Part shown: positions 1,502-55,370 of the stretch, piece by piece
Numbering within the stretch: the stretch's first letter is position 1
Layout of the letters: each line of letters opens with the position of its first letter
Virus genome (UHGV): UHGV-0086135
Direction: 5' to 3' (one strand)
Source: a virus
DNA length: 64,000 bases
Notes under the pieces: model-generated
Databases searched by the model: none
What the model saw: the letters and a program-made list of their open reading frames with translations, nothing else
Told to the model about the DNA's origin: nothing
Position numbers and translations under genes: made by a program

Positions 1502-4198
1502 ATGAAAGAATTTTATATCTCTATCGAAACAGTCGGAAATAATATTGTTGAGCGTTATATTGATGAAAACGGAAAGGAACGTACCCGTGAAGTAGAATAT
1601 CTTCCGACTATGTTTAGGCATTGTAAGGAAGAGTCAAAATACAAAGACATTTATGGTAAAAATTGCGCTCCTCAAAAATTTCCATCAATGAAAGATGCGC
1701 GAGACTGGATGAAGCGAATGGAAGACATCGGTCTCGAAGCTCTCGGTATGAACGATTTTAAACTCGCTTATATCAGTGATACATATGGTTCAGAAATTGT
1801 TTATGACCGAAAATTTGTTCGTGTGGCTAACTGTGACATTGAGGTTACTGGCGATAAATTTCCTGACCCAATGAAAGCAGAATATGAAATTGATGCTATC
1901 ACTCATTATGATTCAATTGACGATCGTTTTTACGTCTTTGATTTATTGAATTCAATGTACGGTTCAGTATCAAAATGGGATGCAAAGCTAGCTGCTAAGC
2001 TTGACTGTGAAGGTGGTGATGAAGTTCCTCAAGAAATTCTTGACCGAGTAATTTATATGCCATTCGATAATGAGCGTGATATGCTCATGGAATATATTAA
2101 TCTCTGGGAACAGAAACGACCTGCTATTTTTACCGGTTGGAATATTGAGGGATTTGACGTTCCGTATATCATGAATCGCGTTAAAATGGTTCTCGGTGAA
2201 CGCAGTATGAAACGCTTCTCTCCAATCGGTCGAGTAAAATCTAAACTAATTCAAAATATGTACGGTAGCAAAGAAATTTATTCTATTGATGGCGTATCTA
2301 TTCTTGATTATTTAGATTTGTACAAGAAATTCGCATTTACTAATTTGCCATCATTCTCTTTGGAATCAGTTGCTCAACATGAAACCAAAAAAGGTAAATT
2401 GCCGTACGATGGTCCTATTAATAAACTTCGTGAGACTAATCATCAACGATACATTAGTTATAACATCATTGACGTAGAATCAGTTCAAGCAATTGATAAA
2501 ATTCGTGGGTTTATCGATCTAGTTTTAAGTATGTCTTATTACGCTAAAATGCCTTTTTCTGGTGTAATGAGCCCTATTAAAACTTGGGATGCTATTATTT
2601 TTAACTCACTGAAAGGTGAACATAAGGTTATTCCTCAACAAGGTTCGCACGTTAAACAAAGTTTTCCGGGTGCATTTGTATTTGAACCTAAACCAATTGC
2701 TCGTCGATATATTATGAGTTTTGACTTGACGTCTCTGTATCCGAGCATTATTCGTCAGGTTAACATTAGTCCTGAGACTATTCGTGGGCAGTTTAAAGTT
2801 CATCCAATTCATGAATATATTGCAGGAACAGCTCCTAAACCGAGTGATGAATATTCTTGTTCTCCGAATGGATGGATGTATGATAAGCACCAAGAAGGTA
2901 TCATTCCAAAGGAAATCGCTAAAGTATTTTTCCAGCGTAAAGATTGGAAAAAGAAAATGTTCGCTGAAGAAATGAATGCCGAAGCTATTAAAAAGATTAT
3001 TATGAAAGGTGCAGGGACTTGCTCAACTAAACCAGAAGTTGAACGATATGTTAAGTTTAGCGATGATTTCTTAAACGAATTATCGAATTACACCGAATCT
3101 GTTCTTAACAGTCTGATTGAAGAATGTGAAAAAGCTGCTACACTTGCTAACACAAATCAGCTGAACCGTAAAATTCTTATTAACAGTCTTTATGGTGCTC
3201 TTGGTAATATTCATTTCCGTTACTATGATTTGCGAAATGCTACTGCTATCACAATTTTCGGTCAAGTCGGTATTCAGTGGATTGCTCGCAAAATTAATGA
3301 ATATCTAAATAAAGTGTGTGGAACTAATGGTGAAGATTTCATCGCAGCAGGTGATACTGATTCGGTATATGTTTGTGTAGATAAAGTAATTGAAAAAGTA
3401 GGTCTTGACCGCTTTAAAGAACAAAATGATTTAGTTGAATTCATGAATCAGTTTGGTAAGAAAAAGATGGAACCTATGATTGATGTTGCATATCGTGAGT
3501 TATGTGATTATATGAATAACCGCGAGCATCTGATGCATATGGACCGTGAAGCTATTTCTTGCCCTCCGCTTGGTTCAAAGGGTGTTGGTGGATTTTGGAA
3601 AGCGAAAAAACGTTATGCTCTGAACGTTTATGATATGGAAGATAAGCGATTTGCTGAACCACATCTAAAAATCATGGGTATGGAAACTCAGCAGAGTTCA
3701 ACACCAAAAGCAGTACAAGAAGCTCTCGAAGAAAGTATTCGTCGTATTCTTCAGGAAGGCGAAGAGTCTGTCCAAGAATACTACAAGAACTTTGAGAAAG
3801 AATATCGTCAACTTGACTATAAAGTTATTGCTGAAGTAAAAACTGCGAACGATATAGCGAAATATGATGATAAAGGTTGGCCAGGATTTAAATGTCCGTT
3901 CCATATTCGTGGTGTGCTAACTTATCGTCGAGCTGTTAGCGGTTTAGGTGTAGCTCCAATTTTGGATGGAAATAAGGTAATGGTTCTTCCATTACGTGAA
4001 GGAAATCCATTTGGTGACAAGTGCATTGCTTGGCCATCAGGCACAGAACTTCCAAAAGAAATTCGTTCTGATGTACTGTCTTGGATTGACTACTCAACTT
4101 TGTTCCAAAAATCGTTTGTTAAACCGCTTGCGGGCATGTGTGAATCGGCGGGTATGGACTATGAAGAAAAAGCTTCGTTAGACTTCCTGTTTGGCTGA
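1502..4198 (+). CDS. 43: DNA polymerase gp43 (family B, with 3'-5' exonuclease)
   Basis: 898 aa as T4 gp43; exo motif CDIEVTG, polymerase motifs KILINSLYGALG and AGDTDSVY; preceded by the gp43 operator hairpin. Confidence 0.95.
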   Translation: MKEFYISIETVGNNIVERYIDENGKERTREVEYLPTMFRHCKEESKYKDIYGKNCAPQKFPSMKDARDWMKRMEDIGLEALGMNDFKLAYISDTYGSEIVYDRKFVRVANCDIEVTGDKFPDPMKAEYEIDAITHYDSIDDRFYVFDLLNSMYGSVSKWDAKLAAKLDCEGGDEVPQEILDRVIYMPFDNERDMLMEYINLWEQKRPAIFTGWNIEGFDVPYIMNRVKMVLGERSMKRFSPIGRVKSKLIQNMYGSKEIYSIDGVSILDYLDLYKKFAFTNLPSFSLESVAQHETKKGKLPYDGPINKLRETNHQRYISYNIIDVESVQAIDKIRGFIDLVLSMSYYAKMPFSGVMSPIKTWDAIIFNSLKGEHKVIPQQGSHVKQSFPGAFVFEPKPIARRYIMSFDLTSLYPSIIRQVNISPETIRGQFKVHPIHEYIAGTAPKPSDEYSCSPNGWMYDKHQEGIIPKEIAKVFFQRKDWKKKMFAEEMNAEAIKKIIMKGAGTCSTKPEVERYVKFSDDFLNELSNYTESVLNSLIEECEKAATLANTNQLNRKILINSLYGALGNIHFRYYDLRNATAITIFGQVGIQWIARKINEYLNKVCGTNGEDFIAAGDTDSVYVCVDKVIEKVGLDRFKEQNDLVEFMNQFGKKKMEPMIDVAYRELCDYMNNREHLMHMDREAISCPPLGSKGVGGFWKAKKRYALNVYDMEDKRFAEPHLKIMGMETQQSSTPKAVQEALEESIRRILQEGEESVQEYYKNFEKEYRQLDYKVIAEVKTANDIAKYDDKGWPGFKCPFHIRGVLTYRRAVSGLGVAPILDGNKVMVLPLREGNPFGDKCIAWPSGTELPKEIRSDVLSWIDYSTLFQKSFVKPLAGMCESAGMDYEEKASLDFLFG

Positions 4199-4346: not shown

Positions 4347-4380
4347 ACAACTATCAACTGATACGGATTTGGAGAATAAA

Positions 4381-4638
4381 ATGAAAATTGTTTATGGTTG
4401 TTTAGCAGCGTGTTTAGTTGCATTAGCAGTTGTTCTAGTTGCATTAGCAGCTGTTCCATTTATTGATATTGAAAATGACACTCAGAATGTGATTGAATCT
4501 AATACTGTTATTCACATGAATGGTAAAGTATCAACAAAAATTGATGATAATCTTCATATGAATACTAATGGAACGCTTGGTGTTCAATTAGGTAATACCT
4601 GTGTAAGCACTACTGGAGTAATTACTACTTGTATTTGA
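4381..4638 (+). CDS. small secreted or membrane protein (N-terminal hydrophobic signal-like segment)
   Basis: ATG at 4381 with GGAG 6 nt upstream in the conserved cassette leader; ORF-track start 4369 is a TTG inside that leader. Confidence 0.5.
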   Translation: MKIVYGCLAACLVALAVVLVALAAVPFIDIENDTQNVIESNTVIHMNGKVSTKIDDNLHMNTNGTLGVQLGNTCVSTTGVITTCI

Positions 4639-4648
4639 GGAAATTATT

Positions 4649-5441: not shown

Positions 5442-6182
5442 ATGATTAACGATTATATGACAGTTGAAGAAATCCGTCTTGATTTGGGGCTTGCATTAAA
5501 GGAAAAAGATTTCGTAGTTGATAAAACTGGTGTTAAAACTATTGAAATTATTGGTGCATCATTTGTAGCAGATGAACCGTTTATTTTTGGCGCTCTTAAT
5601 GATGAATACATTCAACGTGAACTTGAATGGTATAAATCTAAAAGTTTGTTTGTTAAAGATATTCCGGGTGAAACACCGAAGATTTGGCAGCAGGTAGCAT
5701 CTTCTAAAGGCGAAATTAACTCGAATTATGGTTGGGCCATCTGGTCAGAAGATAACTATGCCCAGTATGATATGTGTTTAGCTGAACTTGGTCAAAATCC
5801 TGATTCTCGACGTGGTATCATGATTTATACTCGTCCATCTATGCAGTTTGACTACAATAAAGATGGTATGTCAGATTTCATGTGTACGAATACCGTACAG
5901 TATCTGATTCGTGACAAGAAAGTCAATGCAGTTGTTAATATGAGAAGCAATGACTGCTGGGCAGGCTATCGTAATGATTATGCATGGCAAAAATACGTAC
6001 TAGATAAATTAGTATCTGATTTGAATGCAGGCGACCCATCGCGGCAATATAAAGCAGGTTCTATTATATGGAACGTTGGAAGTCTTCATGTGTACGAAAA
6101 TCAGTTTTATTTAGTTGACCATTGGTGGAACACTGGTGAAACTCATATTGCTAAAAAGGATTATACTGGAAAATGGAAGTAA
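5442..6182 (+). CDS. 42: dCMP hydroxymethylase gp42
   Basis: 246 aa as T4 gp42; thymidylate-synthase-like fold expected; synteny. Confidence 0.9.
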   Translation: MINDYMTVEEIRLDLGLALKEKDFVVDKTGVKTIEIIGASFVADEPFIFGALNDEYIQRELEWYKSKSLFVKDIPGETPKIWQQVASSKGEINSNYGWAIWSEDNYAQYDMCLAELGQNPDSRRGIMIYTRPSMQFDYNKDGMSDFMCTNTVQYLIRDKKVNAVVNMRSNDCWAGYRNDYAWQKYVLDKLVSDLNAGDPSRQYKAGSIIWNVGSLHVYENQFYLVDHWWNTGETHIAKKDYTGKWK

Positions 6183-6814
6183 ATGTGCCACATGTTTATA
6201 AGTATAAACATCCTAAAACTAAAAAGTGGTATATAGGAAGTCATGATGGTCACAACCCAAATTATGATGGTTCGGGTGTAGTTTGGCAACATGCTAAAAA
6301 GAAATATGGAATAAAATCCTTTAATAAAGAAATATTATATGAAGGACCAATGTTTAGACAGGTTGAAGAAATTATTTTAACTTGTTTAGATGCTGCTAAT
6401 TGTCCGGATTCATATAATTTAAAGAATGAAGCATGGGGAGGAAGTTTTCCAGGCAAATTAAATGGAATGTACGGTAAAAAACTATCTCCAGAAGAAAGAT
6501 ATAAGTGCGGAAATGCCTTTCGTGGAATCAAGCGTCCTGATCATTCTAAAAGAATGAAAGGCGAAGGTAATCCAATGTATGGTAAAAATGAGCAGGCATA
6601 TGGAATTATAAATCGAGCAAAGGAAAATTCTGGTAAAACTTATGAAGAAATTTTTGGCGCAGAAAAAGCTAAAATAATTAAAGAAACGATGTCTAAAAAT
6701 CGTAAAGGAAAACCTCATAATTTGATAGAAAAAATATGTCCGCATTGCGGACTAAAAGGACGTGGGCCAAATATGACAAGATACCATTTTGACAAATGTA
6801 AGGCACTTAAATGA
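6173..6814 (+). CDS. freestanding GIY-YIG homing endonuclease (Seg/I-TevI-like)
   Basis: N-terminal VYKYKHPKTKKWYIGS (GIY..YIG-like) then R/E/N catalytic residues, NUMOD-like GKKLSPEERYK and GKNEQAYG repeats, C-terminal Cys4 zinc finger CPHCG..HFDKC; overlaps gene 42 stop. Confidence 0.7.
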   Translation: MEVNVPHVYKYKHPKTKKWYIGSHDGHNPNYDGSGVVWQHAKKKYGIKSFNKEILYEGPMFRQVEEIILTCLDAANCPDSYNLKNEAWGGSFPGKLNGMYGKKLSPEERYKCGNAFRGIKRPDHSKRMKGEGNPMYGKNEQAYGIINRAKENSGKTYEEIFGAEKAKIIKETMSKNRKGKPHNLIEKICPHCGLKGRGPNMTRYHFDKCKALK

Positions 6815-7653
6815 TTCAATTCGTAATTCCAAGTTATCAGCGTGTCGGGGCAGTTTCTGCCCTTGATATGTTTCCGACTGATTATGAACCCCATATTGTA
6901 GTGCGTGAACATGAAGAAAAAGCTTATTATGATGCCTATGGGTCTAGAGCTAAAATTATAACTATTCCTGATGATGTAAACGGAATTGCCGGTACTCGTA
7001 AAGCAATTACTGATATGTATGCAGGTCAACGAATCTGGATGATTGACGACGATACTACTATTCGTATGAGTTCAATGCGAAAAAGAGATGACCGTCGTTG
7101 TGTAGATAAAGTCAATCAATTAACCCGTGAACAGTTCTATGAATTGATTCAATACGTTGAAGATGCCATGGATTGTGGGTATTATCATGGTCATGCTCGC
7201 CTACCAATTTTTAAAATTACTTCATCTTGGGGTAATTATCGTGAAAATTCATATGGATTCACGAATACATGGTATGACCTCGGAAAACTTACGACAGAAC
7301 AAATTGGGTATGGAAAAATTGATTTATGCGAAGATATGTATGCATTTCTCAATTTAATTAATCAAGGTTATCCGCATTTGGCCCTGTTCAAATATCTGGT
7401 TGTATCTGGAAAAGCACAAGCTCCTGGCGGATGTAGTTCAATTCGTAGTAATTCAAAACATAATAGAGCTCTTGAGCAAATCAACAGAGAGTTTCCAGAG
7501 CAAGCTCGTTGGAAAACATCGAATATCGAAAAGAGAAAATCGTTGGGTGAAGAAGACGAGCCATTAAAAGTTCTTCGCATGTGTGTTTCGCGCAAAGAAA
7601 AATCAGAAGCGTTTCATAAGTTTAATGCTATTCATCCAATAGCAGTTGATTAA
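6811..7653 (+). CDS. HMC-DNA glycosyltransferase, GT-A type with DxD motif (beta-alpha-gt-like rather than T4 beta-gt)
   Basis: 280 aa with IDDDTT motif; sits where T4 carries beta-gt; not the 351-aa GT-B beta-gt. Confidence 0.5.
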   Translation: MIQFVIPSYQRVGAVSALDMFPTDYEPHIVVREHEEKAYYDAYGSRAKIITIPDDVNGIAGTRKAITDMYAGQRIWMIDDDTTIRMSSMRKRDDRRCVDKVNQLTREQFYELIQYVEDAMDCGYYHGHARLPIFKITSSWGNYRENSYGFTNTWYDLGKLTTEQIGYGKIDLCEDMYAFLNLINQGYPHLALFKYLVVSGKAQAPGGCSSIRSNSKHNRALEQINREFPEQARWKTSNIEKRKSLGEEDEPLKVLRMCVSRKEKSEAFHKFNAIHPIAVD

Positions 7654-7677
7654 TGCCTAAATTTATTGTGTTATAAT
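7654..7677 (+). promoter_or_regulatory. putative MotA-dependent middle promoter for uvsX
   Basis: MotA-box-like TGCCTAA, 11 nt spacer, TATAAT. Confidence 0.4.
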
Positions 7678-7730
7678 TACTTTATCTTTAACCAGTGAGG
7701 AAAATATAATGATGCCTATGGAAAAAATGA

Positions 7731-53477: not shown

Positions 53478-54509
<1,032 letters not shown>

Positions 54510-54510
<1 letters not shown>

Positions 54511-55370
54511 TGAAACAATACCAATTTTTAATTAAAGATATCCTGGAAAATGGCTATGAAACCGATGACCGAACAGGCACAGGAACAATTGCTTTGTTCG
54601 GTACTAAATTACGCTGGGATTTAACTAAAGGTTTTCCTGCGGTAACAACTAAGAAGCTCGCCTGGAAAGCTTGCATTGCTGAGCTACTTTGGTTTTTATC
54701 AGGAAGCACAAATGTCAATGATTTACGATTAATTCAGCACGATTCATTAATTCAAGGCAAAACAGTCTGGGATGAAAATTACGAAAATCAAGCAAAAGAT
54801 TTAGGATACCATAGTGGTGAACTTGGTCCAATTTATGGAAAACAGTGGCGTGATTTTGGTGGTGTAGACCAAATTATAGAAGTTGTTGATCGTATTAAAA
54901 AACTGCCAAATGATAGACGTCAAATTGTTTCAGCATGGAATCCAGCTGAACTCAAGCAAATGGCATTACCACCTTGTCATATGTTCTATCAATTTAATGT
55001 GCGTAATGGCTATTTGGATTTGCAGTGGTATCAACGTTCGGTAGATGTTTTCCTCGGTCTTCCATTTAATATTGCATCATATGCTACGTTAGTTCATATT
55101 GTAGCTAAGATGTGTAATCTTATTCCAGGAGATTTGATATTTTCTGGTGGTAATACTCATATCTATATGAATCACGTAGAACAATGTAAAGAAATTTTGC
55201 GTCGTGAACCTATGGATTTATGCGAATTACAATTAAAATTTCCAGATGAATTTGATGAATGGAACACAGAATCACAGGTATTTTGGTTGAGTCAATTCGC
55301 AAAGCCGCATGATTTTGTTCTTAACAACTATGTATCTCACCCGCCAATTAAAGGAAAGATGGCGGTATAA
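54510..55370 (+). CDS. td: thymidylate synthase Td, uninterrupted (no group I intron)
   Basis: 286 aa from ATG 54510; conserved TS motifs including PPCH active-site Cys and DRRQIVSAWNP in one continuous frame. Confidence 0.9.

Follow-up and report, generated by a model that had tools for sequence, protein, structure and literature searches.

A likely Seg-type freestanding GIY-YIG homing endonuclease gene behind gene 42 of T4-like phages and its linkage to one class of gene 42 alleles

The stretch of 64,000 nucleotides analysed here, from UHGV virus genome UHGV-0086135 (the window), is Tequatrovirus (T4-like) phage DNA, and it carries an open reading frame (ORF) between gene 42, which encodes dCMP hydroxymethylase (gp42), and the gene for beta-glucosyl-HMC-alpha-glucosyltransferase. 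We consider it likely that this ORF encodes a Seg-type freestanding GIY-YIG homing endonuclease that is mobile now or was so recently, and that is targeted at gene 42. This view is carried by the fold and family of the protein, the presence or absence of the gene at exact junctions, a one-sided linkage to gene 42 sequences in two phage genera, an association with gene 42 in metagenomes, and purifying selection on the protein. Gene 42 would be both the host gene and, probably, the target gene of the endonuclease. The three genes are located as follows.

6173-6814, + strand: homing endonuclease ORF, Seg-type and freestanding GIY-YIG by our assignment; 213 amino acids, ATG start, TGA stop
5442-6182, + strand: gene 42, dCMP hydroxymethylase, 246 amino acids, with the class A 3' allele described below; Pfam Thymidylat_synt 7e-15 and gene 42 annotation in the matching phage records
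6811-7653, + strand: beta-glucosyl-HMC-alpha-glucosyltransferase, 280 amino acids, the downstream neighbour; PHROG 842 6e-89 and Pfam TAGT

The gene order around the ORF is 43 (DNA polymerase), small membrane ORFs and imm, 42, the endonuclease ORF, the glucosyltransferase gene, uvsX, 40 and 41. The ATG of the ORF lies 10 nucleotides (nt) inside the end of gene 42, the stop codon of which is at 6180-6182, and its TGA shares the sequence ATGA with the glucosyltransferase ATG (a 4-nt overlap, from 6811). The original prediction, made from the letters of the window alone, had given the position of the ORF and both overlaps correctly. The G+C content of the insert was 33% versus 36-37% in its neighbours, and the base composition of the insert relative to them gave no signal.

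The 213-residue protein matched PHROG 314 ('homing endonuclease') at 1.8e-31. With the single protein as the query, a Pfam search gave no GIY-YIG match and a plain sequence search of the PDB gave nothing; only the family profile and the structure model reached GIY-YIG and I-TevI. A large protein database yielded 69 homologues, of which about 58 were full-length or nearly so with 42-71% identity, and the family alignment and profile were based on 34 members. In the AlphaFold2 model built from the homologue alignment (mean predicted local distance difference test score, pLDDT, of 89), residues 7-72 form a strand-strand-helix-strand-helix core (E-E-H-E-H) with a pLDDT of 92-98. When this model was compared with the PDB by Foldseek, the top three matches were the I-TevI catalytic domain (1mk0, 1ln0) with a probability of 1.00, template modelling (TM) scores of 0.63-0.67 and root-mean-square deviations of 2.8-3.0 Å, and the 34-member profile found the same I-TevI chains by sequence (E 6e-4). 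The GIY-YIG N-terminus that had been read from the sequence was therefore confirmed by the motif, the model and the profile. A comparison with the T4 Seg proteins, suggested together with that reading, returned SegC and SegA (E 2e-13 and 5e-9, respectively), the named proteins most closely related to the window protein, beside PHROG 314 and the profile match to I-TevI. Three regions can be distinguished in the protein.

6191-6442, + strand: GIY-YIG nuclease domain, residues ~7-90, from the model, fold search, profile alignment, conservation and SegC/SegA matches
6452-6703, + strand: linker and DNA-binding region, residues ~94-177, with two NUMOD3-like G-x-N-[GP]-M-Y-G-K repeats (96-103 and 132-139) followed by helices
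6728-6811, + strand: C-terminal CCHC zinc finger, residues 186-213, from conservation and the model, with weak fold matches to C2H2 and UBZ fingers

The GIY and YIG motifs of the nuclease domain read VY9K-x9-Y20IG22 followed by S (VYKY-x9-YIGS) and align with the GIY and YVG of I-TevI. Among the 34 homologues Y20, G22 and N82 are invariant and Y9 is conserved in at least 90%; near-invariant across the family are also Y31-x-G33-S34-G35 and G46. N82 aligns with the YN of I-TevI (N90), and E64/E65 (consensus FRxxEE) with the ERE(N) stretch that holds E75.

For the second region, the original prediction had named NUMOD-type repeats. Two repeats are visible and the domain is recognised in relatives; in the window protein itself, NUMOD3 (PF07460) scored 18.1 bits, below the cut-off of 20.4. 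Pfam run over the 34 family members assigned NUMOD3 to 23 of them (E at most 0.01, best 4.5e-10), SegE_GIY-YIG to 11 and GIY-YIG to seven.

A Cys4 finger like that of I-TevI had also been predicted, but the ligands are of the CCHC type and are located at the extreme C-terminus. They are C189, C192, H205 and C209 (CxxC-x12-H-x3-C), all four nearly invariant in the family, in which the finger reads C189-P-x-C192 ... G-P-N-M-T-R-Y-H205-F-D-K-C209. The model shows a strand-strand-helix unit resembling classical C2H2-type fingers, and no Pfam model matched this finger in the window protein. The finger module CPxC-x(5)-G-[PG]-NM-x-RYHF-x(2)-C occurs both in phage proteins with an HNH nuclease domain and in phage proteins with a GIY-YIG domain (IMG/VR loci L037, L060, L070, L074, L077 and L083 compared with L054, L064, L073 and L086), and 353 IMG/VR stretches encoding a relative of the query were found via the finger motif. 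Judged from these sequences, the C-terminal finger appears to behave as a shuffled DNA-binding module.

In GenBank the protein is labelled hypothetical protein, 'putative endonuclease', 'homing endonuclease', 'site-specific intron-like DNA endonuclease', 'similar to segC' or 'SegD'. The label 'SegD' (record LR746311) was rejected, as the sole T4 match by tblastn at E at most 1e-5 was segC.

The 642-bp ORF is present in 78 phage records at a nucleotide identity of at least 95% (72 of those at 99% or more) and, at about 74% nucleotide identity, in ten Klebsiella phages. A synthetic empty junction, composed of 300 bp each from gene 42 and the glucosyltransferase gene, was used as a query, and 475 records matched it over at least 80% of its length. 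Carriers matched in two pieces spanning 1242 bp and about 400 records in one piece of 606-610 bp, and relative to the empty junctions the insert amounts to 632 bp. In genomes without the insert, such as RB14, T6, slur07 and CE1, the end of gene 42 reads ...GGTGAGTGGAAATGA and shares ATGA with the glucosyltransferase start; the empty junction sequence ...GGTGAGTGGAAATGATTCAA was found in about 400 records. The empty site is thus a 4-nt gene overlap and holds no intron sequence. In T4 the order is gene 42, 23 nt, b-gt (which encodes a different transferase), segA and uvsX, and the junction contains no gene, as the original prediction had said. Its idea of a selfish-type insertion between conserved genes agrees with the 78 carriers and the approximately 400 precise empty junctions, and comparison of the junction in related phages proved the gene to be optional in Tequatrovirus and in Jiaodavirus (see below).

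The ORF was intact in nearly all of the 78 records, with a frameshift in about three. To compare carriers and non-carriers, the surrounding ±5 kb were aligned for five carriers and eight non-carriers. The insert copies of the five carriers were 98.4-99.3% identical compared with 94-97% in the flanks, and carriers were found on many different glucosyltransferase and upstream haplotypes. Carriers and non-carriers freely share polymorphisms that lie only 17-35 nt past the insert, and the glucosyltransferase gene has no endonuclease-linked sites. At the level of sequence, the low diversity of the insert and the free sharing downstream look like signs of recent spread.

On the other side of the insert the picture is different. 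Identity between carriers and non-carriers equals that within the groups throughout the alignment, except for a drop to 0.83-0.86 over the final ~330 bp of gene 42. Two haplotypes are found there: class A, the gene 42 haplotype of the carriers that is mostly shared by the non-carrier CE1, and class B, the common haplotype. The linked features are as follows.

5933-6137, + strand: endonuclease-linked haplotype block in the 3' part of gene 42, containing all 30 fixed class A/B sites of the 10-kb alignment
5943-5969, + strand: patch 1, gp42 codons R168-F176; class B VVFGF versus CWAGY in the window, including the cofactor-site Phe174
6095-6104, + strand: patch 2, gp42 residues 219-221; class B VY-SRH-F versus VY-ENQ-F in the window, adjoining the cofactor-site Tyr218 and Arg220
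6152-6175, + strand: recoded last codons of gene 42, carrier-specific, with ATG at 6173 (GTG in non-carriers) and AAGGA at 6156-6160

In the phage database, class A comprised 78 carriers and 10 non-carriers, and class B comprised no carriers and 404 non-carriers. The search with the 226-bp block was bimodal, with 87 records at 95% or more, one at 90-95% and 404 at 80-90%, and in the last group patch 1 failed to align. For counting the carriers, the query was the block extended by 158 nt into the insert, and 78 records covered its full length. Patch 2 co-varies with patch 1. Both patches touch known functional residues of gp42 (PMC6400193): in the T4 dCMP hydroxymethylase structure, Asp171 corresponds to Asp169 of E. 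coli thymidylate synthase and Phe174 forms part of the wall of the cofactor pocket, and Tyr218 and Arg220 belong to the cofactor site. The codon family of Ser169 (AGY or TCN) was considered as a marker of ancient class A and class B lineages and was rejected, as both classes use both families.

Seven further sites, 6131, 6152, 6158, 6166, 6170, 6171 and 6173, are fixed between the carriers and all non-carriers including CE1. Among the carrier changes are GTG to ATG at 6173 and AAAGA to AAGGA at 6156-6160, and gp42 ends ...DYTGKWK in carriers versus ...DY[NK]GEWK in non-carriers. We infer that the recoded end of gene 42 is the translation initiation region of the endonuclease; the string GCTAAAAAGGATTAT also occurs in Klebsiella phage Mexia, where the annotators marked AGGA as the ribosome-binding site. 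Scans for sigma-70 promoters and terminators around the gene showed no excess of sites, and searches there for the T4 late promoter TATAAATA and for MotA boxes found nothing. An RNA hairpin hiding the start was not supported, since folding of 6125-6215 gave z = 0.02 relative to shuffled sequences. The simplest reading would be read-through from gene 42 transcripts, with translation via the embedded start or by coupling to the termination of gene 42.

The same arrangement was found in a second genus, which provides an independent replicate. Klebsiella phage Mexia, of the Jiaodavirus type, has a 70%-identical protein at the same junction, between gene 42 and the homologous transferase gene, and among 142 Jiaodavirus-type records containing the junction approximately 10-14 carry the endonuclease gene and approximately 128 are empty. 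Over the first ~480 nt of gene 42, Mexia agrees with the empty phage Mineola at 98-100% identity; the value is 65-80% from patch 1 to the insert and 93-100% directly after it. The foreign tract has its left edge at the same place in the two genera, nt ~490-500 of gene 42. Three patches are common to the carriers only, and this in both genera: patch 1 (NDCWAGYRND versus NDVVFG[FY]RND), patch 2 (VY[EQ]NQFY versus VY[SE]RHFY) and patch 3, the DNA string GCTAAAAAGGATTAT. Between the window and Mexia, the ratio of nonsynonymous to synonymous substitution rates (dN/dS) of the endonuclease gene is 0.16 (dN 0.24, dS 1.52), similar to that of gene 42 (0.19) and of the transferase gene (0.18), indicating that the endonuclease protein is kept by selection.

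In a few Klebsiella phages (KpnM6E1, L016 1804-2328; Merci; phiA85), an HNH nuclease gene occupies exactly the same junction. The KpnM6E1 protein (Pfam HNH 8e-6, with a NUMOD3-like stretch) is unrelated to the GIY-YIG enzyme, and its gene overlaps both neighbours. The 42/glucosyltransferase junction is a hot spot for two nuclease families. As gene 42 of the HNH-bearing phage KpnM6E1 has the class B patches, the class A block is specific to the GIY-YIG endonuclease and does not accompany just any insert.

In Klebsiella phage vB_KpnM_GF (L006, a partial genome, ~2990-3095), a deletion of 636 bp relative to Mexia spans the end of a class A gene 42 (~112 nt) and the beginning of the endonuclease gene (~525 nt), leaving a truncated gp42 of 214 amino acids and the zinc-finger tail only. 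A gp42 without its C-terminal active-site residues is surprising in a viable phage, and the deletion may be a real decay product or an assembly error.

To see whether the association with gene 42 extends beyond these genera, IMG/VR was scanned with the endonuclease family alignment, which returned 80 loci. Homologues with at least 47% identity were located directly after a gp42 homologue in 18 out of 18 loci, whatever the gene downstream, and in most of these loci the downstream gene was not a glucosyltransferase gene. The gp42 neighbours were 49-98% identical to the gp42 of the window in 16 loci and 27% identical in two; in the 16 the endonuclease gene was 11-48 nt past the gp42 stop or overlapped it, and in the two it followed after a gap of ~230 nt. 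Homologues with 36% identity or less adjoin other genes, with one exception (L041, 36%) located after a gp42 homologue. A second scan, with the gp42 alignment, gave 80 diverse gp42 loci, 34 of class A (xWAG[YF]) and 46 of class B (V[VI]FG[YF] or a motif close to it). The endonuclease gene was present, as a full-length (seven) or remnant (three) copy, in 10 of the 34 class A loci and in none of the 46 class B loci; as the 80 loci are not phylogenetically independent, these counts are given without a P value. Patches 1 and 2 co-vary in all 80. In the IMG/VR contigs L107, L108 and L109 (~2190-2380), the class A gp42 is followed only by the last ~55-69 codons of the endonuclease (...KLSDIHLGKKK...CPYCAKIGRRPNMTRYHFNKCKK), so that the nuclease domain is gone and the zinc-finger tail is left, as in vB_KpnM_GF.

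A mechanism that would account for these patterns can be outlined. In a mixed infection, the enzyme would cut the gene 42 allele of the phage that does not carry the endonuclease gene, and the cut, in the common class B allele, would fall no more than ~240 bp from the end of the gene. The phage recombination machinery would then repair the break with the carrier genome as a template, and along with the 632-bp endonuclease gene it would copy the 3' stretch of gene 42 in between. Carriers would for that reason always have the class A block, which would itself resist cleavage. No promoter belonging to the endonuclease gene was found, and its message would probably be the transcript of gene 42, with the start codon and the Shine-Dalgarno-like AAGGA lying in the recoded end of that gene.

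Cleavage inside the 3' part of gene 42 in class B genomes, within the last ~240 bp, is what we infer from these sequence patterns, given that homologues of at least 47% identity always follow gp42 and that the linked differences are found only in gene 42. Within this interval, patch 1 is our first but tentative candidate for the cut site. It is attractive because it lies at the left edge of the tract in both genera, includes Asp171 and Phe174 with their roles in the enzyme (PMC6400193), and is homologous to the td site of I-TevI. Patch 2 is a possible, though doubtful, cut site, and the same can be said of the last codons of gene 42 or the junction.

The original prediction had named the intact 42/glucosyltransferase junction of insert-free phages as the target. 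On that account the endonuclease would be the same, its insertion would destroy the site as in intron homing, and the class A block upstream would be carried along as a passenger. High conservation, within genera as well as between them, is indeed seen at the empty junction and over the first ~25 nt of the glucosyltransferase gene (ATGATTCA[AG]TT[CT]GTAATTCCAAGTTAT), the seven carrier-fixed sites, for which CE1 counts among the non-carriers, adjoin the insertion point (6131-6173), and I-TevI cuts only 23-25 bp from its own insertion site (PMC5009752 and the td sequence of the window). However, most of the junction-proximal fixed sites are explained by the making of the ATG and the AAGGA, and a junction target leaves unexplained why the linkage is perfect up to 240 bp upstream and zero 17 nt downstream. 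Moreover, the metagenomic orthologues with 47-65% identity follow gene 42 with other genes downstream and without the glucosyltransferase gene, so only the gene 42 side can be a common target. We therefore regard the junction as an unlikely target, and this part of the original prediction is probably wrong: linked sites extend upstream to ~240 bp, none are found downstream, and the homologues are tied to gene 42.

Several points weigh against a mobile endonuclease aimed at gene 42, the reading that we prefer. Ten class A genomes, CE1 and PD112 among them, lack the endonuclease gene, and class A without the gene is common in metagenomes (23 of the 34 loci). CE1 and PD112, the two of the ten that were inspected individually, both switch to the empty-site sequence at ~6137-6165, a pattern more readily accounted for by an older class A allele or by one loss event than by repeated partial conversion. 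The block could also be held together by co-adaptation of patches 1 and 2, which belong to the same cofactor pocket, and by tight physical linkage, and the left edge shared by two genera coincides with the most conserved codons (MRSND), at which diverged gene 42 copies could recombine. No downstream co-conversion was seen, whereas simple double-strand-break repair would predict at least a short tract. In the protein, the canonical catalytic arginine of I-TevI, R27, has no alignable counterpart; the family profile has a gap of ~9 residues there, and the Y-x-GSG motif (Y31-x-GSG), invariant in the family, occupies the place of the R27 segment. Finally, the library searched contained neither a description of an endonuclease gene at the gene 42 junction nor a paper naming or testing the protein.

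Since class A loci without an endonuclease gene are common (23 loci), class A is a normal functional form of the enzyme. The absence of the arginine is not read by us as inactivity, because T4 SegA and SegC share the arginine-less Y-x-GSG arrangement and both are listed as active in the review by Edgell, Gibb and Belfort (PMC2988022).

The same observations could be taken to mean that the gene is a resident relic, immobile or dead as a nuclease, inherited vertically with a minor gene 42 allele, so that the block would reflect ancestry and epistasis within gp42. The lack of an alignable arginine would agree with a relic, as would the existence of class A alleles without the gene and the degenerate copies elsewhere (the zinc-finger tails of L107-L109 and the 636-bp deletion of vB_KpnM_GF), and a recombinant with patch 1 and patch 2 from different classes may be unfit, as the cofactor site is touched by both. 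On the other hand, the ORF is intact in nearly all 78 records with a dN/dS of 0.16 across genera, and the copies are more alike (98.4-99.3%) than their flanks (94-97%) and are located on many haplotypes, unlike a clonal vertical lineage. In addition, the same element with the same allele patches is found in two genera, and T4 SegA, listed as an active site-specific endonuclease, has the same arginine-less motif (PMC2988022). A relic therefore seems quite improbable to us.

Still less weight is given to the idea that the main role of the gene is competition between co-infecting phages, in which a carrier would keep a rival's markers or progeny out by cutting the rival's gene 42, an essential gene, and homing would follow as a side effect. 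Synthesis of hydroxymethylcytosine (hmC) DNA depends on the target gene, the carriers hold a distinct allele, and marker exclusion by Seg enzymes has been described in the T4 literature. Competition and ordinary homing are, however, mechanistically the same event seen from different sides, and nothing in our data separates them.

In comparison with known systems, a mobile endonuclease at gene 42 would be ordinary in kind, an uncharacterised Seg-type member that is already variously labelled in GenBank. Its nuclease domain is homologous to those of SegC (36% over 117 amino acids by BLASTP) and SegA (32% over 167), with a shared YIG-x(n)-Y-x-GSG...KKYG...F..EIL pattern and NUMOD3-type repeats after the domain. 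Like them, the gene is freestanding between conserved genes in the orientation of its neighbours. SegA of T4 is one gene away (b-gt/segA/uvsX) and cuts uvsX (PMC2988022). The identity of 32-36% is, however, mostly confined to the nuclease domain, nothing in the SegA or SegC alignments corresponds to the CCHC finger, and the window gene is located elsewhere with gene 42 as its presumed target.

The genetic picture of a freestanding gene beside a conserved gene is the same as that of SegF (gene 56) and SegG (gene 32). In their intronless homing, the cut is made inside the neighbouring gene, away from the insertion, co-conversion of the interval is obligatory, and the carriers' own allele of the neighbour has diverged. 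Such distant cutting with co-conversion is established for the T4 Seg enzymes, a class treated in the review named above (PMC2988022). For SegF and SegG, cut sites and over-transmission were measured, whereas for the window gene they are deduced from population patterns only. The HNH genes of KpnM6E1, Merci and phiA85 are alike in position, in their overlaps of both neighbours and, in KpnM6E1, in the NUMOD3-like stretch, and that of KpnM6E1 differs in its catalytic domain and in its class B gene 42 neighbour.

A further parallel is offered by I-TevI and I-BmoI. The window protein has the same catalytic fold as I-TevI and the same modular build of nuclease, linker and DNA-binding region, and the host genes belong to one superfamily, as gp42 is a thymidylate synthase homologue. 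Patch 1 (MRSND-VVFGF) is homologous to QRSVDVFLG/LPFN in td (the slash marks the insertion point of the intron), where I-TevI cuts (CAACG) and the intron inserts. The td gene of the window (54498-55370; 55030-55070) is uninterrupted, with ...YQRSVDVFLGLPFNIAS continuous, and the phage accordingly has no td group I intron and no I-TevI. The intron-less td reads TAT CAA CGT TCG GTA GAT GTT TTC CTC GGT CTT CCA (YQRSVDVFLGLP), in which the GGT/CTT boundary is the position of the T4 td intron. An intact CAACG, the cleavage motif of I-TevI (PMC5009752), is kept 23 nt upstream of GGT/CTT.

The differences from I-TevI are nevertheless considerable. The window ORF is a freestanding cistron overlapping two protein genes and not an intron-encoded one, and it is located ~210-240 bp from patch 1 as against the 23-25 bp of I-TevI. 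The identity of the proteins is ~20% and the R27 region is missing. The window protein also has no Cys4 linker finger, the sole metal-ligand cluster being the CCHC at 189-209, and Pfam gave no helix-turn-helix match in it.

It is conceivable, though in our view doubtful, that the endonuclease lineage recognises the patch 1 codons of gene 42 (R168-F176), which encode an active-site strand and are the homologue of the td/thyA site of I-TevI and I-BmoI. If so, freestanding and intron-borne GIY-YIG enzymes would have settled on the same active-site codons across the thymidylate synthase superfamily, and homing would swap co-adapted cofactor-site residues of an essential enzyme (V173/F174/H221 to W173/A174/Q221), even between genera.

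The added interest of the element lies in the apparent co-conversion footprint in two genera, the strict pairing with one class of active-site alleles and the parallel with td and I-TevI. It offers a clean natural example in which the same element and a putative passenger block of gene 42 occur in two genera and in diverged metagenomic phages, next to hundreds of empty-site genomes. With existing phages (the window phage or SHFML-11 compared with T6, RB14 or CE1), the cut position, the reach of co-conversion and the movement of active-site variants between lineages become accessible questions. The assignment also corrects the annotation of about 90 database records.

A few observations were made in the vicinity of the gene. 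A G+C-rich hairpin (GGGCAG-loop-CTGCCC) followed by a T-rich stretch is located at 6847-6863, within nt 1-50 of the glucosyltransferase coding sequence, and was picked up by the terminator scan. Its stem is kept between Tequatrovirus, including the empty-site phages, and Jiaodavirus (L005, Mexia), with the loop TTT versus TAA. Upstream, in the region ~4355-4640 between gene 43 and imm.1 (ORF 4369-4638), within-group identity is 0.74-0.93 compared with ~0.96 around it, and the ORF content varies among phages.

Between the glucosyltransferase gene and uvsX, the window has a 77-nt spacer (7654-7730). At this place CE1 (L003 2654-3319), like T4, has a SegA-like GIY-YIG gene, and the carriage of the two neighbouring endonuclease genes, that at the gene 42 junction and the SegA-like one, is independent. 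In the carrier phage RPN226 (L007 6859-9231), uvsX is in two parts. The N-terminal part ends with a Hint/intein-like sequence, the C-terminal part starts with an intein-splicing match followed by the UvsX C-terminal domain, and a NUMOD3-containing ORF is located between them. The arrangement resembles a 'fractured gene', in which the intein is split into halves and the endonuclease is freestanding; the uvsX of the window, unlike that of RPN226, is intact.

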